A stretch of 64,000 nucleotides of DNA from Candidatus Oxydemutator sp. (GCA_965203445.1 OZ241883.1:288001-352000), one strand, 5' to 3'; counted from the first letter of the stretch, positions 11,336 through 48,542 are shown. The notes: a model not told the origin generated them from the sequence alone. A program made the numbers and translations.

Positions 11336-11438
11336 AAAAATGATTATATCAACCGCCGACCCTTTGACGAAGCGCGGTTGCGCCCCGCCGGTAATTTGTT
11401 AAAATCAATAAACGATCCAAAAATAATCGTTTTTTCTT

Positions 11439-12344
11439 ATGACGAGACAACCGACGCTGCGCCAGCTGGGCTTTTTGATCAGCCTCGACGAACACCTGCA
11501 TTTTGGCAGAGCGGCGCAGGCGTGCTTTGTGTCGCAATCCACTTTCAGCCTGGCGATCAAGGAACTCGAATCGCTGCTCGGCGCGAAGCTGGTGGATCGC
11601 AACAGTCGGAGGGTGTTGTTCACACCGTTCGGCAAGGACGTGGTCGAGCAGGCGCGCGCGGTGTTGCGCGAGACCGACCGCCTGGTCGAGATCGCAAGCC
11701 GCGGCAAGGAACCGTTCACCGGGCGCCTGCGCCTCGGCGTGATTCCGACCATCGCGCCGTTCGCGCTGCCGGAGATGCTGCCGGACGTCCGCCGTCGCTG
11801 GCCGAAACTGCGGTTGTCGATCCGCGAGGACCTGACGGTGCGGCTGCACGAGGCACTGATCGCCGGTCATCTCGACCTGATCCTGATAGCGTTGCCGTTC
11901 GACCTGAAGGGCGTCGAGACGCTGGTGTTGTTTCGGGATCGTTTCAAACTTGCCTATCGCAAAGGCACGCGGCTTTTCGACCCGCGTCGCTACGACGAGG
12001 AGCAACTGCCCGACGGCAGTATCCTGCTGCTCGAGGACGGGCACTGCTTGCGCAACCAGGCGCTGTCGGCCTGCCGCGTCGAGAACGTGGACAAGATCAG
12101 CCCGTACAGCGCGAGCAGTCTCTACACGCTGGTGCAGATGGTCAACAACGATCTCGGCGTCACGTTCGTGCCGGAGATGGCGTGCAGCGGACGGCTGCTG
12201 GTGCGCACCAGCGTCGAGGTGGTGGACATGCCGCGCGCCGCGTACCGCGAGATCGGCTTCGCGTGGCGCCAGGGCACGGTGCGCGCCCCCGAATACCGAG
12301 ACTTCAGCGCCGCCTTTCAAAAACTCGATCCGGCGAACGCATGA
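11439..12344 (+). CDS. oxyR: Hydrogen peroxide-inducible LysR regulator OxyR
   Basis: LysR HTH (HFGRAAQACFVSQSTFS); redox motif LLEDGHCLRNQALSAC with the C-x8-C pair. Confidence 0.88.
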   Translation: MTRQPTLRQLGFLISLDEHLHFGRAAQACFVSQSTFSLAIKELESLLGAKLVDRNSRRVLFTPFGKDVVEQARAVLRETDRLVEIASRGKEPFTGRLRLGVIPTIAPFALPEMLPDVRRRWPKLRLSIREDLTVRLHEALIAGHLDLILIALPFDLKGVETLVLFRDRFKLAYRKGTRLFDPRRYDEEQLPDGSILLLEDGHCLRNQALSACRVENVDKISPYSASSLYTLVQMVNNDLGVTFVPEMACSGRLLVRTSVEVVDMPRAAYREIGFAWRQGTVRAPEYRDFSAAFQKLDPANA

Positions 12345-12387
12345 GCACGCATCGCGGCACCCGGCCGCGCCCGCCCCGCCCCGCCTC

Positions 12388-13968
12388 GTGACCACGCCGA
12401 CCGACGCCGCCGCGCGACGCTCGCCGAGGCGCCCACTCAGGCGCGCACTGCTAAGCGTGTCCGACAAAACCGGCGTCGTAGATTTCGCGCGCGCGCTGCG
12501 CACCGCCGGCGTCGAGATATTGTCCACCGGCGGCACCGCGCGCGCGCTCGCCGCGGGCGGCGTCGAAGTACGCGACGTATCGGACTACACCGGCTTCCCG
12601 GAGATCATGGACGGGCGCGTCAAGACGCTGCATCCGCGCGTTCACGGCGGCCTGCTCGCGCGGCGCGACGCCGACGCCGCGGCCATGCGCGAATACGGTA
12701 TCGCCGGCATAGATCTGCTCGCGGTCAACCTCTACCCATTCGCGCAAACCGTCGCACGCGCCGACTGCACGACCGAGGAGGCAATCGAGAGCATAGACGT
12801 GGGCGGCCCGGCGATGATCCGGGCGGCGGCAAAAAATTACCGCCACGTCACGGTCGTCGTGGATCCGGCGGATTACGCCGAGATTGCCGAGACAATCGGC
12901 GGCGGCGGCGACGTCGCCGACGACCGGCGCTTCGCGTTGGCGACAAAGGCTTTCGAACACACCGCGGCCTACGACCGGATGATCGGCGGCTGGTTTGCCG
13001 CACGCACCGCGCCGGAGGAAGATGAGCTGCCGAAAACCTGGGGCGGTTTCGCGCGCACGGCGGCGCTGCGCTACGGCGAGAACCCCCACCAGCGGGCCGC
13101 GCTCTACGGTGACGGCGGCCCGTGCAGCGCGCGCCGGTTGCAGGGCAAGCCGATGTCGTTCAACAATTATCTGGACGCCGACGCCGCGTGCCGCACGCTG
13201 CGCGAGTTCGGCGAAACACCCGCCTGCGTCATCGTCAAACACGCCAACCCGTGCGCCGCCGCATGCGCGGACGACGCCGGCGAGGCCTACGCGCGCGCCC
13301 ACGCCGCCGATCCGTTGTCGGCCTTCGGCGGCGTCATCGCGCTGAACCGCGCACTCGACGAGGCCACCGCGCGCGCCGTCGTCACGACGCAGTTCGTCGA
13401 GGTTATCGCGGTGCCCGAGGCGCACCCCGGCGCGTTGCGGGTGCTGGCTGCCAAACCCGGGGTGCGCCTGCTGGCGTACCGCGACGACGCGCGCGACGGC
13501 GTGCTCGCCGTCAAGAGCATACGCGGCGGCTTACTGGTGCAGCAGGAGGACGAGGCGCGCGTCGAGGCGGGCGACCTGCAAACGGTGACCCGGCGCAAAC
13601 CGAACGCCGCCGAGATCGCGGACCTGCTGTTCGCGTGGCGCGTGGCCAGGCACGTGCACTCGAACGCAATCGTCTGCGCCGCCGGAATGCGCACCGTGGG
13701 CATCGGCGGCGGCCAGACGAGCCGCGTGGACGCGGTGCAAATCGCGCTGCACAAGGCCGCGCGCTGCGGCCATACGCTCGCCGGCGCGGCCATGGCGTCG
13801 GACGGATTCTTCCCGTTCGCCGACGCCGTCGCGCGCGCGCACGAGGCCGGCGTCGCGGCGGTCATCCAACCCGGTGGTTCGATGCACGACGCCGACGTGA
13901 TCGCCGCCGCCGACGAACGCGGCATCGCGATGGTGTTGACCGGCGTGCGCCATTTTCGGCACGGGTGA
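12388..13968 (+). CDS. purH: Bifunctional AICAR transformylase/IMP cyclohydrolase
   Basis: RALLSVSDKTG, GRVKTLHP, IDVGGPAMIRAAAKN, LRYGENPHQ, ASDGFFPF, GVRHFRH. The GTG start at 12388 is approximate. Confidence 0.95.
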   Translation: MTTPTDAAARRSPRRPLRRALLSVSDKTGVVDFARALRTAGVEILSTGGTARALAAGGVEVRDVSDYTGFPEIMDGRVKTLHPRVHGGLLARRDADAAAMREYGIAGIDLLAVNLYPFAQTVARADCTTEEAIESIDVGGPAMIRAAAKNYRHVTVVVDPADYAEIAETIGGGGDVADDRRFALATKAFEHTAAYDRMIGGWFAARTAPEEDELPKTWGGFARTAALRYGENPHQRAALYGDGGPCSARRLQGKPMSFNNYLDADAACRTLREFGETPACVIVKHANPCAAACADDAGEAYARAHAADPLSAFGGVIALNRALDEATARAVVTTQFVEVIAVPEAHPGALRVLAAKPGVRLLAYRDDARDGVLAVKSIRGGLLVQQEDEARVEAGDLQTVTRRKPNAAEIADLLFAWRVARHVHSNAIVCAAGMRTVGIGGGQTSRVDAVQIALHKAARCGHTLAGAAMASDGFFPFADAVARAHEAGVAAVIQPGGSMHDADVIAAADERGIAMVLTGVRHFRHG

Positions 13969-19281: not shown

Positions 19282-20150
19282 CGTCGCCGCACGACCCGTT
19301 CGCGTGCGATCTTCCAACCGTCGGCGGTGTCGCGCAGCAACAGATTTTTGGTCACGGTGCTGGCCAGCAGGTTGGAGCGATATTTCTGCACAAAGGTCAC
19401 GTTCGCCGAACCATCGTCGCGGCGCCGGACTTGCAAGCCTGAAATCTCTATATGGATGCTTTTGGGGCCCAGGATGCGGTCGCGGCGCTGCCGCTTCCAG
19501 GCCTCATGGTCGGTGCCGGAGCGCGGACGGTAATCGCCGGCGTAACTCGTGAAATAGTCGTCCAGATTCTTGCCGGCCCAGGCGCGCGCCCAGCGGCGCA
19601 CGCTGGCGACGATGGCCGCGTCGGCCTCCCGCGACGCGCGTGCCGGCGGCGCCGGTTCCTCGACCAGGGAGCTTTCGATTTCGGCCGCGGCCAACACCGC
19701 GTCCGCCGGCGTCGAAGGCGTCGCCGGCGGAGTCACGCGTTCGCTCCCGACCAGTTCATAGCGCGGCGCCGCGACTTCCATCGAATCCAGCGCCAGCGCG
19801 TTCTTATAGCCGCGCGCCGCGCGATACGCGTACAGCGCGCGCAGATTGCGGTGACCGGTGGCGATGACCGGGGCCGTCGCAATCGCCTTCTCGAACAGGC
19901 GCGCGGCGAGATCAAGGCGGCCTTGCCGGGCGGCGATGATACCGAGGTTGTTGAGTATGCCGGGGTCGTCCGGGTAGCCCTCCTCGAGTTGCTTGAACAG
20001 CCTGTGCGAAGCTTCGAGATCGCCGGCCTGGAACTTGTCGAGCGCCCGCCGGTAACGGGGGTCCTCGCTGACGTCGGCGGCGGCGGCGGCCAGCGCCAGC
20101 AGGCAGCCGGGCAGCAGCCACCGACAACCTTTTCTCGAGAGGGAATACAC
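19278..20150 (-). CDS. Exported TPR protein with NTF2-like C-terminal domain
   Basis: Signal peptide; TPR ([18 protein letters not shown]); WARAW...YFTSYA...WKIARE. Overlaps the L,D-transpeptidase start. Confidence 0.78.
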
Positions 20151-20254
20151 GTCGTATTTTGTCGGCTTACCAGTGCTACCATATTATAGCCGCACGCGGC
20201 TGTGATAGTGTAACGAGATGTGCTCATCCCGTAATCTGGGCGCGGTGCGCTGAC

Positions 20255-21358
20255 GTGAAAATATACCGGGTCGGCGGCAGCGTGCGCGACGAACTGCTCG
20301 GACTGAGCGTCGGCGAAAAGGACTGGGCCGTCGTCGGCGCGACGCGCGAGCAGATGTTGACGCGGGGGTTCAAGCCGGTCGGAAAACATTTCCCGGTGTT
20401 CATCCACCCCGACAGCGGCGAGGAATACGCGCTCGCGCGCACCGAACGCAAAACCGGGCGCGGCTACCACGGCTTTTCCTTCGACGCGGCGCCGGTGGTC
20501 ACGATAGAGCAGGACCTGGCGCGCCGCGACCTGACCATCAACGCGATGGCGCGCGCCGCGGACGGGCGCCTGGTGGACCCCCACGGCGGCCGCCGCGACG
20601 TCGAGGCGCGCGTGCTGCGCCACGTCTCGCCGGCCTTCGTCGAGGATCCGGTGCGCATCCTGCGCACCGCGCGCTTTGCCGCGAAACTACACGACCTCGG
20701 CTTTGTCGTGGCCGCCGAGACGATGGCGCTGATGCGCACGATGGTGCGCGACGGCGAGGCCGACGCGCTGGTCGCCGAGCGCGTCTGGCAGGAGACCGAA
20801 AAAGCGTTGACGACGCCCCGTCCGTCGGTGTATTTCGACGTGCTGCGACGCGCCGACGCGCTCGCGCGCACGTTGCCGGAGATCCACGCGCTGACAAACG
20901 ACGACCGTCAGGCACTGCGCGCGCTCGACGACGCGGCGACGCGCCACCCGCCCGAGACCCTGCTGGCGTTGCTCGCGGATTTTGCGAAGCGCCGAGGGCT
21001 ATCGCTGATGCCGCTCGGCAAACGCCTGAAACTGCCGGGGCGCCATCGCCGCCTGATGGCGGCCACCGAGCGTTGGCTGGAGGCGCTGACCCGCGCCGAG
21101 GTCCTGGCGCGCGAGGATCTCCTCGACCTGCTGGAAGGCACGCGCGCGACGCACGACGGGCGGCGTCTCGACTCGTTGCTGAGCGTATGCTCCTTAGGGC
21201 GCGGCGCACCGTCGCCGCGCGGCGCGGCGCGTATCCGACGGGCGTTGCACGCGCTCACCGACGCGGACTTGCGCGCGGCGCTCGCCGACGCCGCCAAAAA
21301 AGACGACGTCAAAAGGCGCGTGCGCGAGCTGAAGCTTGCCGCGCTCACAGATATATAA
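20255..21358 (+). CDS. cca: tRNA CCA-adding nucleotidyltransferase (short form, HD domain not evident)
   Basis: [43 protein letters not shown]. Confidence 0.92.
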
Positions 21359-22127
21359 AACCGAACAGCAGCGCGCCGAGCACGCAACGGTACACGACGA
21401 AGGGCAACATACCGACCCTTTCGACGAAACGGACAAACAGCCGTATCGTCGCCAGCGCGAACGCGGCGGCGACCACGAAGCCGAGCGCAAGCGGCAGCCA
21501 CTCCGTCGGCACCCGCGTCAGCTGCCACGTTTGCAACGCGGCGGCGGCGAGGATTACCGGGATCGCAAGCAGCAGCGAGAAATGCGTCGCGCGCTCGCGC
21601 GACAGACCGAGCAACAGCGCCGCCGTGATCGTGACACCGGTGCGCGAGGTTCCGGGAATCAGCGCCAGCGTCTGCGCGGCGCCGATCCACAGCGCGCAAC
21701 GCCACGTGATTTCGCGCACGTCGCCGCTGCGGCCGGCGTCGGCAAACCACAAGGCCAACGCGAAAAAGACGGTGGCCGCGGCGATCACCGGCGGTGCGCG
21801 CAGGTGCTCCTCGACCACGGTCTCGAAGGCAAATCCCGCCGCCAACACCGGCAACGACGCCACCGCGAGCGCCGCAAGCAGCCGCCGGTCTTCGGCGCGC
21901 CCCGGGGCGCGCGGGTGGCACGCGAGCAGCAGCGCCGCGAGCTGCGGCCGGTAATGCCAGACCACCGCGAACAAGGTGCCGGCGTGCACCATAACGTCGA
22001 AGGCGAGAACGTCGCCACGCGCACCCAGCGCCTCGTGCGCCAGCGCGAGATGTGCCGAACTCGACACCGGAAGAAATTCGGTCACACCCTGGATCAGAGC
22101 GAGAAGAATAACGTGGAAATTATCCAT
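21345..22127 (-). CDS. uppP: Undecaprenyl-diphosphate phosphatase
   Basis: [32 protein letters not shown]; multi-TM. Confidence 0.94.
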
Positions 22128-22202
22128 GGTGCACAATACTTAAGGTAGTATTGGACCTCAAGTATAGCAGCCGCGACGCCGAGCTGCCGGCCAACGACCC
22201 GT

Positions 22203-22952
22203 ATGAACGAGCACACGAACGACGCCGACAAGACGGCGCTGATCACCGGCGCAGGTCGGCGCATCGGCGCGTGCATCGCCAAGACGCTGCACCGGGGCGG
22301 CTTCAACGTCGTGCTTCACTGCCGCCGCGCGCGCGCCGACGCGGACGCGCTGGCCACGGCCCTGAACCAAAAGCGCGACGACTCGGCGCACGTGCTGGCG
22401 GCCGACTTGCTCAGCCTCGAGGCGCTCGAGGACCTGGCGGACGCGGCGCGCGCGCGCTGGCGGCGCCTCGACGTGCTGGTCAACAATGCGTCGGTGTTTC
22501 GCGCGACCGCGCTCGACGAACTCGACGAGGCCGCCTTCGACGAGTTGATCGGCGTCAACCTGAAAGCGCCGTTGTTCCTGGCACGGCAACTGGCGCCGGA
22601 GCTGCGGCGGCGCGGTGGCTGCATCGTCAACCTGACCGACATCCACGCCGGGCGTCCGCTGCGCGGCCATCCGGTGTATTGCGCGGCGAAGGCCGGGCTG
22701 GCGATGCTGACGCGCTCGCTGGCGCGCGAGCTGGCGCCCGAGGCGCGCTGCAACGCGGTCGCGCCCGGCGCCATCCTGTGGCCGCGGGACGACGACGATG
22801 ACCGGCGCCGGCACGAAATCGTGCGCCGCACCGCGCTCGGGCGCACCGGCGATCCGGGCGACGTGGCGCGGGCGGTGGCGTTCTTAGTGACGGCCGAGTA
22901 CGTCACCGGACAGACGATTACCGTGGACGGCGGCAGGACCTTGCGCAACTGA
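22203..22952 (+). CDS. Pteridine reductase (FolM-like SDR)
   Basis: TGAGRRIG, LVNNASVF, YCAAK, VAPGAILWP. Confidence 0.85.
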   Translation: MNEHTNDADKTALITGAGRRIGACIAKTLHRGGFNVVLHCRRARADADALATALNQKRDDSAHVLAADLLSLEALEDLADAARARWRRLDVLVNNASVFRATALDELDEAAFDELIGVNLKAPLFLARQLAPELRRRGGCIVNLTDIHAGRPLRGHPVYCAAKAGLAMLTRSLARELAPEARCNAVAPGAILWPRDDDDDRRRHEIVRRTALGRTGDPGDVARAVAFLVTAEYVTGQTITVDGGRTLRN

Positions 22953-23063
22953 GTCGGGGCCTAGGCGAAACAGCGGGCGCCAATCGTTCCCGCCCCTCGC
23001 TGGTCCCGCCCCCGACGTCGGGGCCGGCACGCGGCAACGGCCGGCCGGGGCGGGTGCTCCAGG

Positions 23064-23426
23064 TTACGAGGCGGGGCGGGAGTCGGACTCGATGAAACAG
23101 ATGGCGACGTCAAAGGCCTCCTGATAAGCCTGGGTGACCCTGACCAGCAAAGCGGTCATCGGGTCGGCGGAGGTGGCAGTGCCGCCGGAAATCTGCTCCA
23201 GGTCGCTGCTTTCGAGCGCTCGCATGGCCTGGTAATCAGGCACGCAGACGTGCACTACGGCGGCGGTGTTCTGCACCGTGCGCACCTTCAGGGCGGCGTC
23301 GCGCACGTTGAGCGCCTTGGCGGGGTCGCTCTTGACCGCCGCCAGCAACGCCTTGTCGGCGGCGTATTTCTTCGCCAACAGCGCGGACACGACCTCGTTC
23401 GTCGCCGGAATTTGTATCGTCGTCAT
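23064..23426 (-). CDS. NHLP (nitrile hydratase-like leader) RiPP precursor peptide
   Basis: Leader with KSDPAKAL, VRTVQNT..VVHVCVP and LESSDLEQISGG double-glycine site, then a 38-aa core. GAGGAG RBS and a TACAAT -10 box lie upstream. Confidence 0.75.
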   Translation of the reverse strand: MTTIQIPATNEVVSALLAKKYAADKALLAAVKSDPAKALNVRDAALKVRTVQNTAAVVHVCVPDYQAMRALESSDLEQISGGTATSADPMTALLVRVTQAYQEAFDVAICFIESDSRPAS

Positions 23427-23586
23427 TGCATCTCCTCGGTGGTTTCAGGATTCTCGCGAACGTTCGTCGGCGCTACTCCGACTGAATTTCGTGCCGGGCG
23501 ATTGTAACACCGCCGGGTGCGCGCCACCCGCTGCCAGAAGCGATTGAACGGGGACTGCGTCCGCGGCCCCGGCGCGGCCGGCGGCG

Positions 23587-25443
23587 TCAGGCGCGACCGT
23601 CGTCTTTGCGGTGCGCGCGGCCGGCGATGGCGCTCAGCAGCGCGTCCGGCGTGCGCCGATGCCGGCGCAGCAGGCACCCGGAGAAATTGCCAGGCGTGCA
23701 TCCTTCCACCGGGCACCGCAAATCGTCTCTCCTGGCCAGCATTTCCCAGGCGTATTCGAGCGCGCGGTTGCGATCCCTGAAAAAATGATCGGCCCAGTCG
23801 GGGTTGGCGAAACCGCTGCGCTTGAAGGTGTTCATGACCGGCGTCGGCGTGCGTGCGAACAGCAGTTCGACGCCCAGCCCGACCAGCGTGCGCGCCAGCT
23901 GGTGCAGCATCTCCTCGCCGGTCGCGTCTATCTCGGTGATCGCCACCGCGTCCACGATGATGAACTTCAATTCCGGCTGGCTGGCGACGCGCTCGAGCAC
24001 GTGGTCGTGAAAGTAACCGGTGTTGGCAAAGAACAACGGCCCGTCGAAACGGATCACCGCGACTTTGGGGCATACCTTGAGGATGTGTCGCGCCGCGTCG
24101 CGCAGCGTGCCGTCCTTGTGTCTCGCCATGATCGTGATGGTCGGGCGCATCGTGCGGTACACGTACAGACCGAGCGACAGCAAAACGCCGGTCAGAATGC
24201 CGTTCTCCAGGTGCGGCGCGTAAAACAGCGTCACCGCGAAGGTGATCACCGCCACCACCGTATCGTGGCGCTGCACGCGCCACATGTATTTGAAGGGTTT
24301 GACGCGCACCAGGCCGGCGACCGCCAGGATCACGACCGCCGCCAGCGTCGGCTGCGGCAAGTGGTAGAGCAGCGGCGTCAGAAACAGCAGCGTCAACCCC
24401 ACCAGGGCCGCGGTCACCACCGACGAGAAGCCGGTCGCCGCCTTGGCGTCGAAATTCACCGCCGAGCGCGAAAACGACCCCGACACCGCGTAGCCCTGGA
24501 ACAACCCGGCGACGACGTTCGACAGGCCCTGGCCGATCAACTCCTGGTCCGCGTCGAGACGCTGGCGCGTGCTCGCCGCCATCGCCTTGGCGATGGAAAT
24601 CGCCTCCATGAATCCGATCAGCGCGATCGCGACGGCGACGCTGAACAGCTGCTGCACCGCGCCCAGGGTGAACGTCGGCATCTCGAACGACGGCAGGCCC
24701 TGCGGGATTACGCCGACGACGCGGCCACCGTGCTTCTCGAAGCCGAAGTACCAGGAGAGCAGCGTCGCCACGACGACCGCCACCAGGATGTTGGGCACGC
24801 GCGGCAGGTAGCGCTTCAGCAGTACCATCAGCGCGAGCGAAAGCACCGCGATGACCAGCGTCGGCCGGTGCGTGTGCGCGGCGGCGGCCACCACCGTGTC
24901 CCATACCATCTCGTAGTGATGCTCGGCTTTTTCGACGCCGACGCCGAAAATTTTCCCGAGTTGTGACGTCGCTATGATAATCGCGGCGGCGTTGGTGAAC
25001 CCGACCACGACCGGGTGCGACAGAAAGTCCACCATCATGCCGAGGCGCACGACGCCGAGCGTGAACTGGAACAGGCCGACCATCAGCGCCAGCAGTACCG
25101 CGTACGCAAAATAACCGCCGCTGCCGCTCGCCGCCAGCGGCTCGATGGCCGACGCCGTCAGCAGCGAGACGACCGCCACCGGCCCGGTCGCCAGCTGCCG
25201 CGACGAACCGAACAACGCCGCCACCGCGACCGGCAGGAACGACGCATAGAGACCGTAATACGAGGGCAGCCCGGCCAGTTGGGCGTAGGCCATGGATTGG
25301 GGAATCAGCACCAGGGCGACGGTGGTGCCGGCGATGACGTCGGCGCGCAGCGACCGCGCGTTGCGCAACTCGCCGATCCAGCCGGTAAAAGGCGTTACGT
25401 TTCGATAGAAACCAGAGAGCGTTTTTCTGAACTTTTTCGGCAA
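23587..25443 (-). CDS. SulP-family anion permease with STAS domain
   Basis: LIPQSMAYAQLAGLP..YGLY, GSSRQLATGPVA, QELIGQG, GSFSRSAVN, RFDGPLFFAN. Confidence 0.93.
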   Translation of the reverse strand: MPKKFRKTLSGFYRNVTPFTGWIGELRNARSLRADVIAGTTVALVLIPQSMAYAQLAGLPSYYGLYASFLPVAVAALFGSSRQLATGPVAVVSLLTASAIEPLAASGSGGYFAYAVLLALMVGLFQFTLGVVRLGMMVDFLSHPVVVGFTNAAAIIIATSQLGKIFGVGVEKAEHHYEMVWDTVVAAAAHTHRPTLVIAVLSLALMVLLKRYLPRVPNILVAVVVATLLSWYFGFEKHGGRVVGVIPQGLPSFEMPTFTLGAVQQLFSVAVAIALIGFMEAISIAKAMAASTRQRLDADQELIGQGLSNVVAGLFQGYAVSGSFSRSAVNFDAKAATGFSSVVTAALVGLTLLFLTPLLYHLPQPTLAAVVILAVAGLVRVKPFKYMWRVQRHDTVVAVITFAVTLFYAPHLENGILTGVLLSLGLYVYRTMRPTITIMARHKDGTLRDAARHILKVCPKVAVIRFDGPLFFANTGYFHDHVLERVASQPELKFIIVDAVAITEIDATGEEMLHQLARTLVGLGVELLFARTPTPVMNTFKRSGFANPDWADHFFRDRNRALEYAWEMLARRDDLRCPVEGCTPGNFSGCLLRRHRRTPDALLSAIAGRAHRKDDGRA

Positions 25444-25627
25444 GTCGCTACCACCGACGATGAACGCTTATAGTAACACGGGGCGGCGAGCGACTTTCAT
25501 TGCCACGCTACCCATGCCCTCATCCCCATAGGCTCCCATACCGGCCCGTGGGCTTTGCTGGAAAAAATCCACCCTTTGCTATACTCTGCACAATCCGCCA
25601 ATCACGGCGGCCAAAGGAGGAAACAAC

Positions 25628-25996
25628 ATGAGCTCACTATACGAAAGAATCGGCGGCGAAGCGGCCTTGGACGCGGCCGTGAACAAGTTCTATGAAAAGG
25701 TGCTGGCCGACGAACGCATCAAACATTTCTTCGAGGGTGTCGACATGCAACGCTTGGCGCGGCACCAGAAACGCTTCATGACCTACGCGATGGGCGGCGC
25801 ACCGGATTATCCGGGACAGACGCTGCGCGCGGCCCACAAGGGGCTGGTCGAGAACATGGGGTTGAGCGACGAGCACTTCGACGCGGTGCTCGAGGACCTG
25901 GGAGCGGCGCTGAAAGACCTGGGCGTCGCCGACGATCTGGTCGCGGAAGCGGCGGCGATCGTCGAGTCCACCCGCGGCGACGTGCTGAACCGCTAA
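25628..25996 (+). CDS. Group I truncated hemoglobin
   Basis: SLYERIGGE, FYEKVLAD..I.HFF, HQKRF, LRAAH, HFDAV; AGGAGG RBS. Confidence 0.93.
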   Translation: MSSLYERIGGEAALDAAVNKFYEKVLADERIKHFFEGVDMQRLARHQKRFMTYAMGGAPDYPGQTLRAAHKGLVENMGLSDEHFDAVLEDLGAALKDLGVADDLVAEAAAIVESTRGDVLNR

Positions 25997-26030
25997 CCGG
26001 CAACCAGCCCGGGCGCCCCGGCGGAGCGCG

Positions 26031-27065
26031 ATGGAATACCGAACCTTAGGCGATACCGACGTCGAAGTCAGCGTCATCTGTCTCGGCACGATGACCTGGG
26101 GCGAGCAGAACACCGAGGCCGAGGCGCACAAGCAGCTCGACTACGCGGTCGCGCACGGCGTCAACTTCATAGACACCGCCGAGATGTATCCGGTGCCGCC
26201 GAGACAGGAGACACAAGGGCGCACCGAGGCGTACATCGGCAGCTGGTTGCGGCGGCGCGACGACCGCGAGCGGCTGATCATCGCGAGCAAGGTATCGGGG
26301 CCGGGTATGCAGGACTACCTGCGCGGCGGCCCGCGGCTTACGCGCGACCACGTCGAGCGCGCCGCCGAGGCGAGCCTCGAGAGGCTGGCCACCGACTACA
26401 TCGATCTCTACCAGGTGCATTGGCCGGCGCGCCGCACCAACTTCTTCGGCAAGCTCGGCTATGCGCACGAGGATGACGACGACGCGACGCCGATCGCGGA
26501 GACCCTCGAGGCGTTGGGCGATCTGGTCGCGCAAGGCAAGGTGCGCCACGTCGGCATCTCGAACGAGACGCCGTGGGGGGCGATGGCGTGGCTGCGGGAG
26601 GCCGCGGCCCGAGGGCTGCCGCGCATCGTCGGCATCCAGAATCCGTACGGCCTGCTCAACCGCACGTTCGAGGTCGGCCTGGCCGAGATCGCGCACCGCG
26701 AGCGATGCGGGCTGCTCGCCTACTCGCCGCTCGGCTTCGGCGTGCTCAGCGGCAAGTACCTGGACGGCGGGCGTCCGCCGGGCGCGCGGCTTACGCTGTT
26801 CGACTACTTCACGCGCTACACCGGCGAGCGCGGCGTCGCGGCGACGCGCCGCTACGTCGAAATCGCGCGCCAGGCGGGCCTCGACCCGGCGCAGATGGCG
26901 CTGGCCTACGTCAACACGCGCCCGTTTCTGACCAGCAACATCATCGGCGCGACGACCATCGAACAGTTGCGCGACAACGTCGAAAGCGCGGCCACGACGC
27001 TGTCCGAGGACGTGCTCGCGGCCATCGAGCGGGTGCACGAGGAACTGCCCAATCCCTGTCCGTAA
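26031..27065 (+). CDS. tas: NADP(H)-dependent aldo-keto reductase Tas
   Basis: LGTMTWGEQNT, DTAEMYPVPP, DLYQVHWP.R.TN.FG, LLAYSPL, C-terminal PNPCP. Confidence 0.9.
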   Translation: MEYRTLGDTDVEVSVICLGTMTWGEQNTEAEAHKQLDYAVAHGVNFIDTAEMYPVPPRQETQGRTEAYIGSWLRRRDDRERLIIASKVSGPGMQDYLRGGPRLTRDHVERAAEASLERLATDYIDLYQVHWPARRTNFFGKLGYAHEDDDDATPIAETLEALGDLVAQGKVRHVGISNETPWGAMAWLREAAARGLPRIVGIQNPYGLLNRTFEVGLAEIAHRERCGLLAYSPLGFGVLSGKYLDGGRPPGARLTLFDYFTRYTGERGVAATRRYVEIARQAGLDPAQMALAYVNTRPFLTSNIIGATTIEQLRDNVESAATTLSEDVLAAIERVHEELPNPCP

Positions 27066-31502: not shown

Positions 31503-34500
31503 TTATTCTCGCGCCGCAGTCTCCGTCGGCGGGCGCTGACGGCTGACGTCATGGCCGCCGTAGCGCAGCACCGGGTACTGGGTGCTCGTGCCGAAGTCCC
31601 ACGGGTTGTCGCCACCCGCCACGCCGTCCAGGTTCACGTTCCAGGCGGCGTAGATTCCGGTGTAGGCCGTCGGCGCGCGCAACTCGGAGGTGCTCTTGCC
31701 CACACCACCGCGACTCGTTGACTGACCGGAGGTATCGGTGTTCCAGTAACTGTTGGTTACTGTTCCGCTGTCGAATGCTCCTCCTACGAGGCCGCCTGCC
31801 CACGACCGCCACCACGACCACCCGCTGACCGCCCCCGTCGCGTAACTGGCGGCTATCTTCCCCTGGTTCCCCCCTACGAGGCCCCCCTTATAACTCTCCC
31901 CATCGACCGCCCCCGTCGCGTAACTGGCGACTATCTCGCCAGAGTTATCCCCTATGAGACCGCCTGTCTCGAACCTCCCGTTAACCGCCCCCGTCGCGTA
32001 ATTTGCATATATCTTTCCTCCCGGGCGGTTAATTCCCACGAAGCCACCTGTTGACCATCCCGTGGCCCTAACCGTCCCTTTCGCGCAGCTGGCGCTTATC
32101 GTCCCGCTATTCCTCCCCACAAAACCACCTACGTAGTAATACCCCCTGACTACGCCCTGCGCGCAGCTGGCACTTATGCTCCCTTTGTTACGACCTGCCA
32201 CACCCCCGACGTTGTAGTTCCCCTCGACATTCACGCTGAGCAACTTCACTTGTGTAATACTGCTCGAGTCGTCAAGATAGCCGAACAGACCGATATAATC
32301 GCGGCTCCGTCGTTTGATGTATAAATTGGAAATGCCGTGGCCGTTGCCGTCAAAAATGGCAGCATATCTGTTGCTGATGCCGCCAACGGGCTCCCAACCG
32401 GCGCCACCGTTGTAATACAGATCGTCGGTGCGGGTCCGATAGCCGGTGTTGAAGTTCAGGGCGGTCATCAGTTCGTAGCCCTTGCAACCCACGACGACAC
32501 CGGTGGTCGGGCAGCCCATTCCTGCCATCGCTCTTGGAAAAGCAGGCGCGTAGGATGGATAATCGGCCGCGCCGTCCGGCGTGCCGTCGCCGTTCAAGTC
32601 CCAGCGTATCGCGTGCAACTGGCTCAGGCTTCTTATTTCGATGAGACCGTTGTTATTACTATCGTAGTCTCTTGACCCCGTCACCGCGATAGTGAAAGTC
32701 AGCGTCGTCGCGTCACCATCGGAGTCGGCCGCCGTCCAGGTGTACGTCGCCGTCGTAAAAGCCGTCGCCGCCACGCCGGACAGCGTTCGCGTACCTGCGT
32801 CAAGCGACAAACCAAGCGGCAGCGCCAGCGTCGCCGCACTCCCTGGGCCCGTCAGCGCGTAGCGCAACGCGCCGTTACCTCCACGCGCCTCCGGCAGCAT
32901 CTTGCGAACCGATTGTTCGCCGGCCACGTATATCTGCCGCGCTATCGTCGCCACGCCGAACGAGGGATGCAGGTCCATCCGACCGACCACGATGACATAG
33001 GCCGTGGCCGAACCGTCCTGCGCCGTTACTCTCACCGTGCTGACGGTGTCTCTATCCGAGTTCAGCAAGACTTGATGACCTATGGCGGTGTCGGCATCTG
33101 GCGGCGCATACGCTACCGTCGCCCCGGTAGATGCAGCCGTCGCCGCTATCGTCACCCGGCCGGTGCTGCTGCCCGCAGTGGCAAAGTAGGAAGTAGTACC
33201 GGCATCGAAGGACGGCGACAATGGCAATGCAGCGCCGGCGCCGGGCATCGCGTTGCGGATGCTCAACGCGCTCAACCTGCTGTCAGCGGAAATCGCCGGC
33301 TGGACTGCTTGCTGCAACGCCAGCGACGTCGTGCTGTGGCCATACCGCAATATCGGATATTGGGCTCGTGTACCGAAGTCCCACGGATTGTCGGCGCCCA
33401 CCACGCCGTCCAGGTCCACGTTCCAGGCGGCGTAAATCCCGGTGTACGCCGTGGGCGAACGCAACTCGAAGGTCTTCTTGCCCGTACCACCGGCACTCTC
33501 TGTCTGACTGGAAGCCCTGGTATCCCAGTAACTGTTGATCGTTACTGCTCCGTAACCGTTGAGGCTTCTGCTCGACCCTACGAGGCCTCCTGTATTCCGA
33601 CTCCCATTGACCGCCCCCGTCGCGTAACTGGCGACTATCTCGCCATTATTTTCACCTACGAGGCCTCCTATATTCCAACTTCCATTGACCGCCCCCATCG
33701 CGTAACTGGCGACTATCTCGCCATCATTTTCACCTGTGAGACCGCCTAATCTCGAATTTCCATTGACCGCACCTGTCGCGTAACTAACGGTTATCTTGCC
33801 ATGCTCCCACCCTACGAGGCCGCCCACAGTCGAACTCCCATTGACCGCCCCCGTCGCATAACTGGCAGTTATCTCGCCAGTGTCCCGCCCTATGAGGCCG
33901 CCTACATGCGAACTCCCGTCGACCGCCCCCGTCGCATAACTGGCAGTTATCTCGCCGGAGTTCGACCCTACGAGGCCGCCCACAGTCTCCCCCTCGCTGA
34001 CCGTCCCTGTCGCGCAACTGGCAGTTATCTTGCCAGAGTTCCACCCTACGAGGCCGCCCACATTCGACGGAAACGGCTGATACAACCGCCCTTTGACCGC
34101 CCCCGTCACGCAGCTGGCATTTATACTCCCTCTGTTACGACCTGCCACCCCCCCAACATGGATGCGCCCCTCAGCGTCCACATTGAGCAACTTTACTCGT
34201 GTAACATTGCTCGAGTCGGCAAGACGACCAAACAGACCGATATAATCGTGGTTTCGTCGTCTAATGTATACATTGGAAATGCTGTGGCCATTGCCGTCAA
34301 ACGTCGCGGCATACATAGGATCGGATGAACTGCAGGAATACAAATACGTTCCGCTACAAGGGGCGATAGGTTCCCAGCCTTTGCCGCCGTTGTAGTAGAG
34401 GTCATCGGTGCGGGTGCCCGTAGTGCCGGTGTTGAAGTCCAGATCGGCAGCCAATTCGTAGCCTTTGCATACGCCGCTGCTGGCGGAACTCCGGCGACAG

Positions 34501-36810
34501 CTTATTCCCGATGTCGCACCAGGAAAAGCGGCGGCGTAGCCGGCGACGTTGGTCGGATTCCTGCCGTCGCCGTCCAGGTCCCAACGCATCGCGTTCAGCT
34601 GCATAAGATTCTTAATCTCGATCAGGCCGTCCTGGTCGCTGTCGTAATCGAACACCGTGATCGGGAACGTCAGTGCCGCCACGTCGCCGTCCCTGTCGGT
34701 CGCCTTCCAGGTGTACGTCGCCGTCGTAAAGGCCGCCGTCGGCGTGCCCGACAACGTCCGCGTGCCCCTGTCCAACGACAAGCCGGGCGGCAGCGTCAGT
34801 GTCGCCGTGCTCCCCGGACCCGTCAGCGCGTAACCCAACGTGCCGTTACCCTCGTCCGCCGCCGGCAGCGTCTTGTGAACCGGCCCGCCGACCACGTATA
34901 TCTGCCGCGCTATCGTCGTAGCGCCGAACGACGGGAGACTGTCCGGCTGCCTTACCGTGACGACGTAGGTGGTAACCGAACCGTCCTGCGCCGTTACCGA
35001 CACCATGATGGCGGTGTCGCCGCCGATGGTCAGCGCGACTTGGCGGCCGGCGGTGGCGGTGGCGGCGTCCGCCGTGCTCAACGCGACCGTCGCCCTGGAA
35101 TGCGATGCCGTCGCCGACACCGTTACCCGTTCGGCGTCAACGTCCACCGGGACGGTATAGGAAGTAACCCCGCCCTCAAAGCCCCGTAACAGGTTCGGCA
35201 GCGTCGCGACGCTGGCACCGGCCGTAACGCGCAATTCGCGCAACGAAGCATCGGTGGAAATCGTCGGCTGACCAGCCTTCTGCGACGCCACCGACGTACT
35301 GCTGAAGCCATATCGCAGCACCGGATACTGGGTGCTCGTGCCGAAGTCCCACGGATCGTCGCCGCCCGCCACGCCGTCCGCGTCCACGTTCCAGGCCGCG
35401 TAGATTCCGGTGTACGTCGTCGGCGCGCGCAACTCGAAGGTCTTCTGGCCCATGCCGCCGTCGCTTCCTGACTGACCGGAAGTCCTGGTATCCCAGTAAC
35501 TGTTGTATACAGACCCGATGTACCCCGGATATCTATATATTCCGAAGGGGCGAAATCTGGGGTATTTAAGACCCACCAGGCCACCCGTGTAGCTACTCCC
35601 GGTCACCTTCCCCATCGAGTAGCTAGCGACTATCGTTCCGTCACCATTGTTCCCCGCCAGGCCACCCGTATCTTCATGCCCAGACACTCTACCCGTCGCG
35701 TAACTGGCAACTATCATTCCTCCGTTCGTCCCCGCCAAGCCACCTGTCTGCCTATGCCCGGAAACTTCCCCCGTCGCATAACTGGCGGTTATCCAGCCAC
35801 TATTCGATCCCACGAGACCACCCGCTCGCTCTCTCCCAGAAACTGTCCCTGTCGAATAGCTGGCAATTATCCTCCCACCCCAGTTATACCCTACCAAACC
35901 GCCGATTTGGGATGCCCCATTGACCATAGCCATTGAGTGGCTGCCGATTATCCTTCCTTCTCGATTAACCCCCACCAAGCCGCCCGCGCTGTGGCCTGTG
36001 CCAGCGACGGAACCAGAAATGTAGCTGGTGCTTATCGTGCCATGGTTACGACCCACCAGACCACCGACATAGCCGTACGCGGAAACCGCCACGTCGAGCA
36101 GACCCACCCCCGCTATTCTCCCCGTAAGATGGCCAAACAAGCCTACTTTGCTCTGACGGCTGCGGGCAATAAACAGATTGGAAAGAGTATGGCCATTGCC
36201 TTGAAAAACACCGAAATAGGAATTCGTGGAATCACTGCCGATAGGATTCCAGCCCGCGCCGTTGTTGTAATACAGGTCGTCGGTGCGGGTGCTGGCATCG
36301 CCAGTGTTGAAGTTCAGAGCGGTGACCAGCTCGTAGCCTCTGCATGCGTCGGTTGTGGCGGAACTCCGGCGACAGCTGATTCCCGACGACGCGCCCGGGA
36401 AGGCGGCGGCGTAGCCGGCGACGTTGGTCGGATTCCTGCCGTCGCCGTCCAGATCCCAACGCATCGCGTTCAGCTGAGCCAGGTTCTTAATCTCGATCAG
36501 GCCGTCCTCGTCGCTGTCGTAATCGAGCACCGTGATCGGGAACGTCAGCGTCGCGCCATCGCCGTCCTCGTCGGTCGCCGTCCAGGTGTACGTCGCCGTC
36601 GTAAAGGCCGCCGTCGGCGTGCCCGACAACGTCCGCGTGCCCCTGTCGAAAGACAAGCCGGGCGGCAGCGTCTCCGCGTTCCCCGGACCCGTCAGCCCGT
36701 AACCCAATGTTCCGTTGCCGCTGCTCGCCGTGGGCAGGATCAGGGAAGTAATGCGCCTGTGGATCACGTAGGTTTGCGTCGCTATCGTCGCGCCGCCGAA
36801 GTCCGGGCGC
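31503..36810 (-). repeat. Three ~1.5-2.0 kb intragenic module repeats (~36810-34940, ~34940-32972, ~32972-31503)
   Basis: Shared DNA such as ccaggtgtacgtcgccgtcgtaaaggccgccgtcggcgtgcccgacaacgtccgcgtgcccctgtc near 34707 and 36582. ccgaagtcccacgg occurs near 31591, 33373 and 35341. Confidence 0.9.
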
Positions 36811-39800
36811 ACGTCCGGAAACTCGCCCTGCAACGTCAGCGTGTACGGGTTCCGACGGGGATCGGGGTCGTTGCTGACCATGGTCAAAGTCCCCTCGCTG
36901 GTCGTATTCTCTCTCGGATTCAGCGATAAGCGCAATTCCCGCGTGATCGTTGTGGCGGCGGCTATCGTTGCGGTGCCGGTGTCGTTCAAGCTGAAACCGG
37001 CGCCGGTTACCTGGATCGAGTCCAGCACAAGATCCCGGAAGTGGCCCGTGTTTCTGATCGTCAGCGTCGCGGTCTCCGTGCCAGCCCATACTTTGCCAAA
37101 GTCGTAGGTGTTGCCCGATGCGTAAATCTTGCCGTTGACCTGGACTTCTATCTCCGGCCAGATGATCAACGCTCTCAGGGTCTTCGTCGGCGGCGCGCCG
37201 TGGTAGTTGCTTATGATTTGCAACTCTTTCCTGTGCGCAAATCGGACCCTGTGCTGCTGCTCCACCGCCCGCAAATGAACGTCCCACGTGTGCGAACTGC
37301 CGGACGTGATGGTGGTAGGGAAGGAACCCTCGATGGTGTACGGGGAGTTGCGGTCGTAACGAGAGGGAACGTCGAGCGCGCGGACTACCAGGTCGGCGTT
37401 ACCGTCGTTTTCGACCGTAACCCGCACCGTCGCCGTCGTTCCGTACGGCACGTCGGGCAGGTCGCAGAACGACGATGTTTCCGTGCAACCGGAGTACGTG
37501 ACATCCGGGATGGGGCCGGCACCGACGCCAGTCAGATTGACCCGCGCGGTCGCGTCCGGGTGGTCGCCAGTGAACGTGAGCGTCGCCGCATACGTCGTCG
37601 CCACGACGCGTGGCGTGAAGCGCACGTCCCACGTGGCGGTCGAACCGGCGGCGATGGATTGCGTGGCGGAAGACACCAGGCTATAGGCATCGTCCGCATC
37701 GGCCAGAGCCGACGTGACGAGCAACCGCTCGGCACTGTTGTTGGTTACGATCAACGTTCCCATTTGCGCGGTGGTAACGTTCACAAGTCCGAGATCGCAC
37801 GTCCGCGCCCGTGTCGTCGAACGGCATCCGCCGCCGAAGCCGACTTCCATCAGCGGCAGGCGCCGGCTGCCGTGGAGACGGATTGTGTGCGTGGCCACGG
37901 CGGAGCCGGAGGTGGTGAGCGTCAGCGTCTCGGTGTAGGCGCCCGGATCTGTCGGGCGGAACTCGACGGTAATACTCTTAGGCTCAGGGTCATTTTGGGT
38001 TATCAGATACTTTGGATACACATCGGTGCTTAAGCGAAAAACCCCGCTGCCGGTCGTAAGATCAGCGGCAACCCACAAGTCCTCGTTGCCGATGTTTTTC
38101 AGGTGCACCTTCACATTGGTGGATACCATGACGCCGTCGCTGGCGACTATGGTTCCAACGTTGTGCGTGGTGGCTTTGCTCAAAACGTAGCGGCGGTTGT
38201 CATCGGCGCCAATCGAAGCCAGCAGCAGCGGGCCGCGTCCCTTGCCTCTCAAGCGCACGGTGTGCTTGGGCGCGTTCGAGTGAATGGTCAATACCGCGTT
38301 GTCCTCGGCGGACGGCACGCGCGGCGAAAAAGCCACAGTAAGGGGCGTCGAATCGCCAGGTTCCAGTTCGCGCGTGTCGCGCGTGTCGCTCGTGACCGTA
38401 TAGGCCATCCCGCGACGCTCGTTCAACCATCGTTCGACGTCCTCATTGGGCGCGGACACCGCGGGAACAAAATCGCCGGGCGTCACGACGATGGACTGGA
38501 TTCTGAGCGGCGCGGTGCCGATATTTCCGATGGTTACTATCTGGCGATCTGTGCGACCCACTCGCGCATTAAAAGGAGGCCCGAAGATGATAGGAATAGC
38601 CTCAACACCACGCCCCTCCAGACTCAACCGCCACTCGCCCCGCTCGCGGTCGTCGCTGCGAACCGTCAACTCCCCGGCATGGGTCGTCGTGTCCTTGGGC
38701 GAGAAGCGCAGCCGCCACGTGTGCGAGGCGCCCGCGGCTATCGTCGCGCCGCCACCGCCGCCGACGACGCTGAAACCGGTGCCGCTCGTTTCCAGCGAAC
38801 GGACGACAAGCGCCCGGCCCGTCCCCGTGTTCGTTACAACCACCGGCACGGTCAGGCTCGTGCCCTTCTCCACCTTACCGAAGTCGTAGGCACCGACGTC
38901 CGATGAATAAGACCGACCGTCTACCGACACCTCCATGTCGGACCAGACGACGCCGCAAATCAGAACCTGCTGCGGAAACATCGCACGGTCGTTGCTCATT
39001 ATGCTCAACTCCGCATTCCGTGAACCACGGAATCGAAATTTCGGAATACAACTCACGTCCCAACGGTCGGGAACCCCAACTGGAATGGTAGCGGTAGCAG
39101 GGCCATCGAGATGGTAATCGCGGCCATAACGTTGGTTCACCGAAATCGAACTGATCACAAGAGCCTGGTTCCCCTCGTTGTCGATCTCCACCCGCACCGT
39201 CCTCGTTGTGCCCACGGTCACGTCGTCCAAATAACAATAATGGTATTCCTTGCCATCATACCCGGGCATATTGTCCTCATCGCTGCAACCCCAATACCGG
39301 ATCACCATCTTCGGGCCGACGCCATGGCCGTCCAGGTGCACCGTACGCGAACTCAACGCCGGATCGTTGCTCTCGAAAACCAGCGCACCGGCGTAACTCG
39401 TAGCCGCGACCGGCGGACTGAAATGCAAAGTCCACGTGCCGGTGGAACCGGAATCGAGCAGGCGATCCGCGGGGCCGGCCAGACGATACACACCGCCCGA
39501 GACCGTCGGCGTTACCCGCAACGCCTCCTCGCCGACGTTGCCGACGATGACCTTCACCGACGATGTGCCGCCGGCGAGAACGCCACCGAAATCGCACGTC
39601 CGCGTCATCGTCGCATAGCGGCAACCCGCAAAACCCGTCAACACCAGCGCCGGCGCCGTGCCGGTGCCCGCAAGCCGCACCTGGTAGGGTTTGCCCCCAA
39701 GATGATTGCTGGTGATCGTCAGCGTCGTCTCGTGCACGCCACGGCGCGGCGGACGGAAAGACACGTGCAGCGTCGTCGAGGCCTCGGGCCCCACCGTGAA

Positions 39801-47396: not shown

Positions 47397-47416
47397 CCGG
47401 CAGGGTTTTCGGCCCG

Positions 47417-47498
47417 CCCTCTCCTAGGGGGAGAGGGTCGCATTGCGGGTCGGCGGCCATGCTTTCCCATTTCTTATTCTCCTCTCTCTGGGAGAGGA
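47417..47498. repeat. Pair of CCTCTC...GAGAGG hairpins (REP/BoxC-like), possibly a terminator between convergent genes
   Basis: CCCTCTCC-taggg-GGAGAGGG (47417-47437) and TCCTCTC-tctgg-GAGAGGA (47480-47498). Confidence 0.55.
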
Positions 47499-47519
47499 AA
47501 ATATCAGCCACACCGACGC

Positions 47520-48542
47520 CTATTTGACGCCGTACGAGGCTTCCAGTTCCTTTATCATCAAGTCCGCCTGCTGCGGTTCTTTGGAGTGGCGGCCGGCCGC
47601 GGCAACCGCTTTTCTCGCTATTTCCACCGATAGCTTCTCCTTGTCTATGCCGATGTATTTTCGGCCCTCGTTCAAGGCCGCCACGGCCGTCGTGCCGCTG
47701 CCCACGAAGCAGTCGAGAACGACGTCCCCGGTTCGGGTGAACAGGCGTATCGCCCGTCTCGGCAGCTCGACCGGAAATTGGGAATCATGGTCGGCGTTGC
47801 TGCGCACCGACGGCACGTTCCAGACGCCGCGCGAACCCCAATCAACCCATTCTTCCCTGGTCAGTCTCGAGCGATCAATTTTTGTTATTCCCGGCTTCCA
47901 GAAAATGTAGAGATATTCGAACTCGTCCACCGAACGATACGAGATGGTGTGCCACCGCGAGTTTTCCCAGGCCGCGTCCTTTACCCACACCCGGCGATCG
48001 TACAGATAAAAACCCGCCTTTGCCGCCGCCGCCTCTACCAGACCGCCGGCCAGAAACACCCTGGTCTGCGGCTGGTATTTCCCGCCCCTGACGTTGTTGC
48101 CGTTGAGCCTGCGATCTATCGTCTGCTCGCTGCACCCGAAGTGTTCCGCAAGCCTGTATCTGTTCCAGTCCGGATGTTTTTTCTTCACCGCCAGGACGTC
48201 CTCCCGGGACAGGTTTATTCTCCTTCGAGACACGTTCTCGGCCATGATTTTCGGCATGGTCTCGTCCTTGAAGCAGAGAACGTCGGCGATGTTCACGGCC
48301 AGAAAACCGCCGGGTTTGACGATGGGGTAATGCAAAGATATGACGTCTCTCAACAACGCTTTCCAGCATGCAAAAGACAGATCCTTCTCGTATTCCTTGC
48401 CCACGAAATAAGGCGGCGACCATATGCTCAGGGCAATGGATTCCGGCGCAATTCTTTTCAGGAAATGCCTCGCGTCGCCGTGATAGACGTTGTTCGGCGC
48501 AAGCGGGCGGCGCAGATTGATTACCGCCACGTTCCGGTGCAC
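47520..48542 (-). CDS. Orphan N4-cytosine-type DNA methyltransferase (beta class) with internal HTH-like insertion
   Basis: WSPPYF, HDSQFPVELPRR, VVLDCFVGSGTT; insert NRYRLAEHFGCSEQTIDRRL. Confidence 0.88.
   Translation of the reverse strand: MHRNVAVINLRRPLAPNNVYHGDARHFLKRIAPESIALSIWSPPYFVGKEYEKDLSFACWKALLRDVISLHYPIVKPGGFLAVNIADVLCFKDETMPKIMAENVSRRRINLSREDVLAVKKKHPDWNRYRLAEHFGCSEQTIDRRLNGNNVRGGKYQPQTRVFLAGGLVEAAAAKAGFYLYDRRVWVKDAAWENSRWHTISYRSVDEFEYLYIFWKPGITKIDRSRLTREEWVDWGSRGVWNVPSVRSNADHDSQFPVELPRRAIRLFTRTGDVVLDCFVGSGTTAVAALNEGRKYIGIDKEKLSVEIARKAVAAAGRHSKEPQQADLMIKELEASYGVK

Follow-up and report, generated by a model that had tools for sequence, protein, structure and literature searches.

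The window analysed here is the whole of a 64,000-nucleotide stretch from Candidatus Oxydemutator sp. (GCA_965203445.1, OZ241883.1:288001-352000). On its minus strand, a small gene of 120 codons lies between a short-chain dehydrogenase gene and a gene for a SulP permease. An earlier note on this DNA had described it as an orphan NHLP/proteusin-type RiPP precursor with its own promoter. The features of the locus are as follows.

Ends at 22952, plus strand: short-chain dehydrogenase gene (the pteridine reductase of the earlier note), neighbour of the precursor gene
23064..23426, minus strand: precursor gene, 120 codons plus stop (ORF list, coding-like codon-position GC, 13 homologues with a conserved leader)
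23067..23180, minus strand: core, residues 83-120; 38 aa, net charge -3, one Cys, no Gly
23181..23186, minus strand: codons of Gly81-Gly82, the double glycine; putative C39 peptidase cut site, near-invariant in 33 aligned members
23181..23426, minus strand: leader, residues 1-82; NHLP (nitrile-hydratase-alpha-like) domain of a divergent kind, last residues DLEQISGG
23432-23437, minus strand: Shine-Dalgarno-like GAGGAG, 5 nt upstream of the ATG (direct sequence reading)
23501..23509, minus strand: TGtTACAAT (TACAAT at 23501-23506), putative extended -10-like element about 70 nt upstream, no recognisable -35
23587-25443, minus strand as the precursor gene: SulP permease gene, upstream neighbour across a 160-nt gap
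25628-25996, plus strand: truncated-globin gene between sulP and an aldo-keto reductase gene

The reading frame was exactly as previously claimed, with an 82-aa leader ending LESSDLEQISGG and, after it, the 38-aa core that had been quoted. The GC content at its three codon positions (0.61/0.45/0.86) was similar to that of the neighbouring genes. The strong ribosome-binding site and the two neighbours were likewise found, the former as the GAGGAG motif and the latter as the short-chain dehydrogenase and SulP. Only part of the proposed promoter stood. The TACAAT box is present with a TGt before it, but a promoter scan returned no sigma-70-like site, for want of a -35 element. The small hairpin proposed for the 5' leader of about 70 nt was no stabler than expected by chance (z +0.54), and 134 of 200 shuffles folded as well. 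With neither a -35 element nor a fold above chance, a promoter of its own is unproven for the gene, and transcription could equally well come by read-through from sulP, which lies on the same strand.

Comparison of the 35 window proteins with Pfam revealed no radical SAM enzyme, YcaO, LanM/LanC or C39 transporter. The statement that no maturation genes lie nearby was therefore correct, and the orphan status is even stronger since the complete genome is also without them. Elsewhere in the window, a 3808-aa ORF (31503-42929, minus strand) carries HYDIN/VesB-like Ig, ASH, FG-GAP, cadherin-like, GLUG and He_PIG repeats and resembles a surface adhesin of very large size. The segment 43185-44315 (plus strand) showed 38% identity to the subtilase (S8) domain of a 1276-aa protein that follows a precursor array in the sister species G001; composition-based gene calling found no gene in it. 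Beyond it lie short ORFs with atypical codon-position GC and then an N6/N4 DNA methylase gene (47520-48542), and this region (44555-48542) may be a mobile-element remnant. In G001 the sulP and aldo-keto reductase genes are adjacent, with no truncated-globin gene between them.

Leader and core of the predicted protein

The curated NHLP leader model TIGR03793, which had been suggested as a check, matched the window protein at 15.1 bits (E 0.016) and missed its cut-off of 50.9. Pfam assigned the protein to no family. A profile of 33 family members (A2) was run against the PDB, and all nine matches with E < 1e-3 were NHLP leaders or nitrile hydratase alpha chains. These included the NHLP leaders 8tb1_A (E 1e-9) and 9cjx_A (E 1.4e-4) and the nitrile hydratase alpha chain 1v29_A (E 1e-6). 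A paralogue in the same genome (93155-93373) scored 43.7 bits on TIGR03793 and matched the window protein with E 3e-8; because it matches both, it links the window protein to the TIGR03793 family. The earlier assignment of an NHLP-type leader was borne out by the profile matches and this paralogue, and the leader is a divergent member of that type.

A word-indexed protein search found 13 homologues, the best with E 3e-35 (14 proteins at E <= 0.01 with the query, 109 candidates). When 1.84 billion representatives were compared exhaustively, 20 proteins reached E <= 0.001; two are long proteins matched over short stretches. The small homologues have a conserved leader up to (S/A)GG, followed by cores that could not be aligned. 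Throughout the 33 aligned family members, G81 and G82 were nearly invariant and the core was hypervariable, and the window protein retained all invariant and near-invariant positions. A pattern search derived from the family alignment produced 99 hits on genome contigs and 109 on metagenome contigs, none of which was confirmed by tblastn. Judged from its sequence, the window gene most likely encodes an NHLP RiPP/bacteriocin-type precursor of a genus-specific, divergent subfamily.

Among its 38 residues the core has 4 Thr, 4 Ser, a single Cys and no Gly, and it lacks the Cys/Ser/Thr/Gly richness of the NHLP type. Weak similarity to it was seen only in the cores of P0003 and P0029, and each of these similarities was equalled by 12 of 2000 shuffles. 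The possibility of a frameshifted hydrophobic core was rejected, as neither of the other two frames yields such a sequence. The metal site of nitrile hydratase is a tight cysteine cluster. In the window protein this cluster is lost, and its only two Cys residues, C61 and C109, are 48 residues apart. An AlphaFold2 model (mean pLDDT 65.9) predicted three helices in the leader (residues 10-39) and one in the core (residues 89-114). Foldseek comparison of this model with the PDB gave nothing at E <= 0.001, a result that counts neither way because the model is too weak.

Related loci and the machinery of the sister species

In the three sister species (G001, G002 and G003), the same short-chain dehydrogenase (pteridine-reductase-like) gene has a member of the family next to it. 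The leader of the window protein is 51% identical to that of its positional orthologue in G003, and all three positional orthologues have a hydrophobic core. Those of G001 and G003 are located downstream of folB-folK. In the host genome (G000), folB-folK is about 1 Mb away and sulP is the upstream neighbour instead. The order sulP-precursor-dehydrogenase recurs on three contigs from other public runs. Contig X3 (1081 nt) is about 90% identical, and X4 (791 nt) spans some of the leader and the beginning of sulP. The leader also aligns on X5 (4540 nt), from a run labelled sponge metagenome; the core region of this contig consists of 259 unlike letters, and 126 of 1860 letters differ in its sulP stretch. 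The recurrence of this gene order with a conserved leader could reflect continued selection. The 86-aa protein P0002, whose contig measures 1081 nt, parallels the window protein as far as the first glycine of Gly-Gly, then departs from it and ends six residues on. This ending is a +1/-1 frame product of the window gene, as would result from a frameshift at the cleavage site in the P0002 strain.

The sister species, with genomes of 1.6-1.8 Mb, possess many more genes of the family. Profile A1 had 44 matches in G001, 19 in G002 and 37 in G003 against 3 in the host genome, and the family is roughly ten-fold smaller in the host than in its congeners. Outside the genus, A1 matched in none of 15 other genomes of the taxonomic family and in one of 22 in the remaining order. 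Many congener copies form tandem arrays, such as those at L040:9702-12844 in G001 and L043:5741-9928 in G003. Their cores are mostly hydrophobic and Gly/Ala-rich with acidic tails, and a few are long, soluble and helical. The G001 array contains two near-identical repeats of a gene pair, in which a gene for a hydrophobic Gly/Ala-rich core with an acidic tail precedes one for a soluble helical core of about 60 aa; this suggests a recent duplication of two-gene units.

Maturation and export genes accompany these precursors in the sister species. A C39 peptidase domain over cut-off was found in all three congeners, in exactly one C39-ABC gene each, as was YcaO over cut-off (one each). SagB genes were found in G001 (two) and also in G003 (one). 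Each congener has one canonical NHLP export gene, and the three-gene cassette, scored as present in all three, was read gene by gene in G001. The G001 export locus contains, in order, a SpoIIE-type response regulator, a histidine kinase, TolC, a TIGR03794 HlyD protein (220.1 bits, cut-off 156.2), a TIGR03796 protein (956.9 bits, cut-off 853.3), a TIGR03797 protein (752.5 bits, cut-off 709.4), two SagB-family dehydrogenases (TIGR03605) and a sulfotransferase. A second G001 locus contains a SagD/YcaO fusion gene, an adjoining gene for a PoyD-like radical SAM protein and two precursors with Cys/Ser/Thr/Gly-rich cores. The PoyD-like protein scored 319.6 bits on TIGR04517, just below the cut-off of 325, and with it the proteusin link drawn by the earlier note holds at the level of the genus. 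Because G001 has both the export cassette and the YcaO/PoyD-like locus, the genus holds a complete NHLP/TOMM-proteusin-type system.

Precursors and exporter also occur together across the order. TIGR03793 matched at E <= 1e-5 in 13 of 41 genomes, 11 of which have TIGR03796 over cut-off; the other two NHLP-positive genomes are the host and G030. TIGR03796 was over cut-off in none of the 28 genomes that lack NHLP matches. This pattern agrees with the NHLP/transporter correlation of Haft et al. 2010, as given in the excerpt of that paper (PMC2887384).

The host genome: remaining precursors, missing machinery and empty sites

The host genome consists of one contig of 2,378,814 bp with 63.6% GC and a completeness of 100%. 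The further loci of interest are listed here in genome coordinates, except for the last, which lies in the window.

93035, 418996, 1077303 and 1154830: other NHLP-like genes with leader end SGG
1854528 and 2114887: NHLP-like genes without Gly-Gly
1151259-1151777 (G000:C1; L022:6260-6778): Nif11-type Gly-Gly precursor gene, TIGR03798 35.4 bits, cut-off 32.3
1301908-1302036: response-regulator remnant, residues 344-386 of 392 left
1302084-1302623: sulfotransferase remnant, residues 58-237 of 333 left
11336..11377 of the window: empty syntenic site of about 42 bp between a TonB-dependent receptor gene and a LysR-like/purH block

The dispersed set of precursors suspected earlier is thus present, comprising four further NHLP-like genes with Gly-Gly as well as one gene of the Nif11 type, and the advised search for paralogous leaders did find further NHLP-like leaders in the genome. 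TIGR03793 gave six other matches, none over cut-off (best 45.7 bits). The genus leader HMM, searched in six frames of the genome, revealed nothing beyond seven known loci and no hidden degenerate copies. The Nif11-type protein reads EEMADVSGG at its leader end, followed by a 41-aa core; its gene, also with no transporter, is 3 kb distant from the NHLP-like one at 1154830. The precursor genes stand singly amid housekeeping genes, and no recognisable maturation cluster was seen at the five Gly-Gly NHLP-like genes or the Nif11-type gene among 70 neighbouring proteins scanned. One paralogue has an HlyD-family gene 1.4 kb away. A radical SAM gene near the paralogue at 1854609 was set aside as a maturase, that paralogue being without Gly-Gly. 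All six Gly-Gly-type precursor genes are intact.

The search for an NHLM transporter and modifying enzymes, also advised earlier, found none in the complete genome. The best C39 peptidase score was 15.2 bits against a cut-off of 22, and this weak match was rejected as a transporter since its Pfam domains are GspA-like (AAA_22, GspA C39-like and peptidoglycan-binding). YcaO had 0 matches, SagB scored at best 16.5 bits against a cut-off of 78.4, and LanC (PF05147) had 0 matches at E <= 0.1, leaving no LanM/LanC lanthipeptide enzyme. No PoyD-like radical SAM protein was found with TIGR04517, though the control of this search matched nowhere. The histidine kinase, TolC, HlyD, both SagB, the PoyD-like and the YcaO proteins of G001 also found no tblastn match in the host genome at 1e-5. 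The best TIGR03796 match reached 296.9 bits against a cut-off of 853.3 and misses the N-terminal domain. The machinery could still be encoded on a plasmid that the one-contig assembly lacks.

The flanks of the G001 export cassette are collinear in the host genome, with 65-87% identity. Between them, the response-regulator and sulfotransferase remnants are only 47 bp apart, as against about 14.6 kb between the corresponding genes in G001. The site is a deletion scar, and therefore the ancestor had the intervening DNA. The reading frame of the 180-codon sulfotransferase remnant is still open. Beside the scar, a chromate transporter gene (G000:C1:1302614-1303467, L026) is N-terminally truncated, starting at residue 116 of the G003 protein, and has a frameshift near residue 248.

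Other sites that are occupied in G001 are empty in the host. The flanks of the YcaO locus are adjacent, separated by 335 bp as compared with 5.2 kb in G001. At the site between the TonB-receptor gene and purH, G001 carries a 3.4-kb stretch containing six tandem precursor genes (L040:9702-12844), and G003 has a precursor array in the matching interval before its TonB-receptor gene. Window positions 11378-11961 align with L040:8944-9528 at 84% identity (blastn) and the TonB receptors of the window and G001 are 68% identical over their full length. The rho-purD gap measures 90 bp in the window and contains two additional precursor genes in G001. Searches for remnants found nothing significant at the YcaO site, at the array site inside the window or at three sites of dispersed precursors. 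Because remnants are lacking, the direction of change is unproven for the YcaO locus and likewise for the array sites, and gain in the sister lineage is possible there. Loss is shown at the export locus only, where alone remnants are found. The 672-aa purH ORF next to the array site (11950-13968, plus strand) appears over-extended at its 5' end; its homology to G001 purH begins near 12445, and its upstream part overlaps a LysR-like gene starting near 11440.

Interpretation and comparison with known systems

We consider the window gene likely to be a stranded member of an NHLP/TOMM-proteusin-type precursor library that is specific to the genus, left without a cognate route of cleavage or export. 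In the sister species, dozens of precursors would share the leader and be cut after Gly-Gly. Their export would fall to one NHLM cassette made up of HlyD, a C39-peptidase ABC transporter and another ABC transporter, together with TolC, and some precursors would probably be tailored by SagB-type dehydrogenases, the YcaO cyclodehydratase and the PoyD-like radical SAM enzyme. The host lineage seems to have lost all this machinery together with most of the library, the export cassette through a deletion that left truncated flanking genes behind. The window gene would be a survivor, intact and coding-like, with no cognate cleavage or export, and probably recently orphaned. Since it has no cognate means of cleavage or export, it would stand outside any working pathway. 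Stranding is favoured because every known partner is absent from the complete genome, the export locus is a deletion scar, the family is about ten-fold smaller than in the congeners, and precursor and exporter co-occur across the order. Of the outcomes that the earlier note named as refuting, one occurred, the lack of a C39 transporter; the other two did not, since an HMM match, though a weak one, and paralogues were both found.

The loss of the machinery was probably recent, and we infer that the peptide is not matured in the host. Against a long-dead relic, the window gene is undecayed in its frame, ribosome-binding site, typical GC3 and conserved leader residues. Six intact Gly-Gly-type genes would be unexpected if they had been useless for long. 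The intact precursors and the open sulfotransferase remnant fit a recent loss, and equally allow a function independent of the exporter.

Such a function might be that of the uncleaved 120-aa protein, a small nitrile-hydratase-alpha-like domain with a helical tail that was co-opted for a cellular role other than secretion. Its frame and all conserved leader positions were kept despite the loss of the exporter, relatives on other contigs retain the leader as the core varies, and the helices predicted by AlphaFold2 in leader and core would suit such a domain. NHLP leaders are reported as structured in the excerpt of PMC12537861. Nevertheless, a conserved leader with Gly-Gly and a hypervariable core is the pattern of a secreted precursor, and the presence of the exporter in 11 of the 13 genomes of the order with NHLP matches speaks for the same. 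The ending of P0002 shortly after the Gly-Gly site suggests that the core is dispensable in that strain, and neither a partner nor a regulated context is visible around the window gene. On balance, we regard an uncleaved role of the window protein as unlikely. The broader idea, that all six precursors persist without an exporter through a second, cleavage-independent role of NHLP-domain small proteins, seems rather improbable. They might then be uncleaved cytoplasmic proteins or, for the paralogues with hydrophobic tails, tail-anchored membrane proteins. If this were true, the 19-44-copy families of the sister species would be more than an antibiotic library.

The precursor might instead still be cleaved and/or modified in trans by unrecognised machinery, such as a generic ABC/HlyD exporter combined with another protease, and both trans processing and leader-driven export had been put forward in the earlier note. 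Six intact Gly-Gly-type genes remain in the host, which also encodes ABC exporters without C39 (297, 290 and 174 bits on TIGR03796) and has the HlyD-family gene near one paralogue. The genome-wide survey found no C39 domain over cut-off, YcaO, SagB, PoyD-like enzyme or LanC, the export cassette of the genus is deleted, and the 70 proteins around the five NHLP-like genes and the Nif11-type gene include no recognisable maturation cluster. These results do not support either proposal for the host, and we hold processing in trans to be quite doubtful. High-GC DNA gives rise to many long spurious ORFs, and 53 ORFs of at least 40 aa overlap positions 20000-27000, but a chance ORF can practically be dismissed here, being effectively refuted by the conserved homologues (13, down to E 3e-35, and the 20 proteins that reach E <= 0.001 in the exhaustive comparison) and further opposed by coding-like codon-position GC, positional orthologues in three congeners and the Shine-Dalgarno motif upstream of the start.

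The reading as a stranded precursor implies that a well-formed RiPP precursor can occur in a complete genome that is unable to mature it. Mining that starts from precursors should look for the transporter across the whole genome. Precursor and machinery would here be caught in the process of uncoupling, with a datable deletion scar, providing a natural test of how fast orphans decay or are reused. A product could be sought in the sister species rather than in the host, as they have up to 44 divergent NHLP genes, many with hydrophobic cores resembling class IIb bacteriocins, and a full set of export and tailoring genes.

The system resembles the NHLP/NHLM systems in several respects. According to the excerpt of PMC2887384, these have a long nitrile-hydratase-alpha-like leader with an acidic end of the form L.E/D.L..(I/V)SGG, a hypervariable core and many paralogues per genome, some of them distant from the enzymes. 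The exact three-gene transporter is found over curated cut-offs in the congener G001 (TIGR03794/03796/03797). In contrast, the leader in the window diverges too far to reach the curated cut-off (15.1 vs 50.9 bits), the congeners have up to 44 profile matches against the 1-12 per genome given in that excerpt, and the host has precursors but no transporter.

Similarities to the proteusins (polytheonamide PoyA/PoyD) and to TOMM systems include the NHLP leader of the window protein and, in G001, the PoyD-like radical SAM gene next to the YcaO/SagD fusion gene, with SagB-type dehydrogenases elsewhere in that genome. However, the host is without epimerase and cyclodehydratase, and unlike TOMM azole peptides the window core is not rich in azole-forming residues (one Cys, no Gly). 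NHLP clusters of sponge symbionts carry YcaO, PoyD-like and nitroreductase genes, as far as the excerpt of PMC9426513 describes them; the same gene order as in the window was found on contig X5, from the sponge-metagenome run. The srp proteusins also form an NHLP-type family in sponge-associated bacteria, often with YcaO co-located, and in the partial text of 10.1101/2023.06.09.544420 they are described (after Nguyen et al. 2021) as having 252-bp precursor genes, an LCCCW core and a brominase partner. Compared with that description, the window protein differs in its 120 aa and in having no LCCCW core, and the system is not the srp family.

Class II bacteriocins and microcins share the Gly-Gly end of the leader. 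Within this group, the class IIb model (lactobin A/cerein 7B, TIGR03949) scored 18.4-21.1 bits, against a cut-off of 21.5, on two host paralogues and two of the congener copies tested, all with hydrophobic Gly/Ala-rich cores. The window core differs from class IIb in being acidic rather than hydrophobic, and did not match TIGR03949. The window leader of 82 aa is domain-like, as against 15-30 aa in class II bacteriocins, and the host has no C39 transporter. Compared with all these systems, what is new in the subfamily is only its divergence beyond the curated model, and the system itself is of a known kind. The unusual feature is a complete genome with intact precursors and a deleted exporter, beside sister species rich in such genes.
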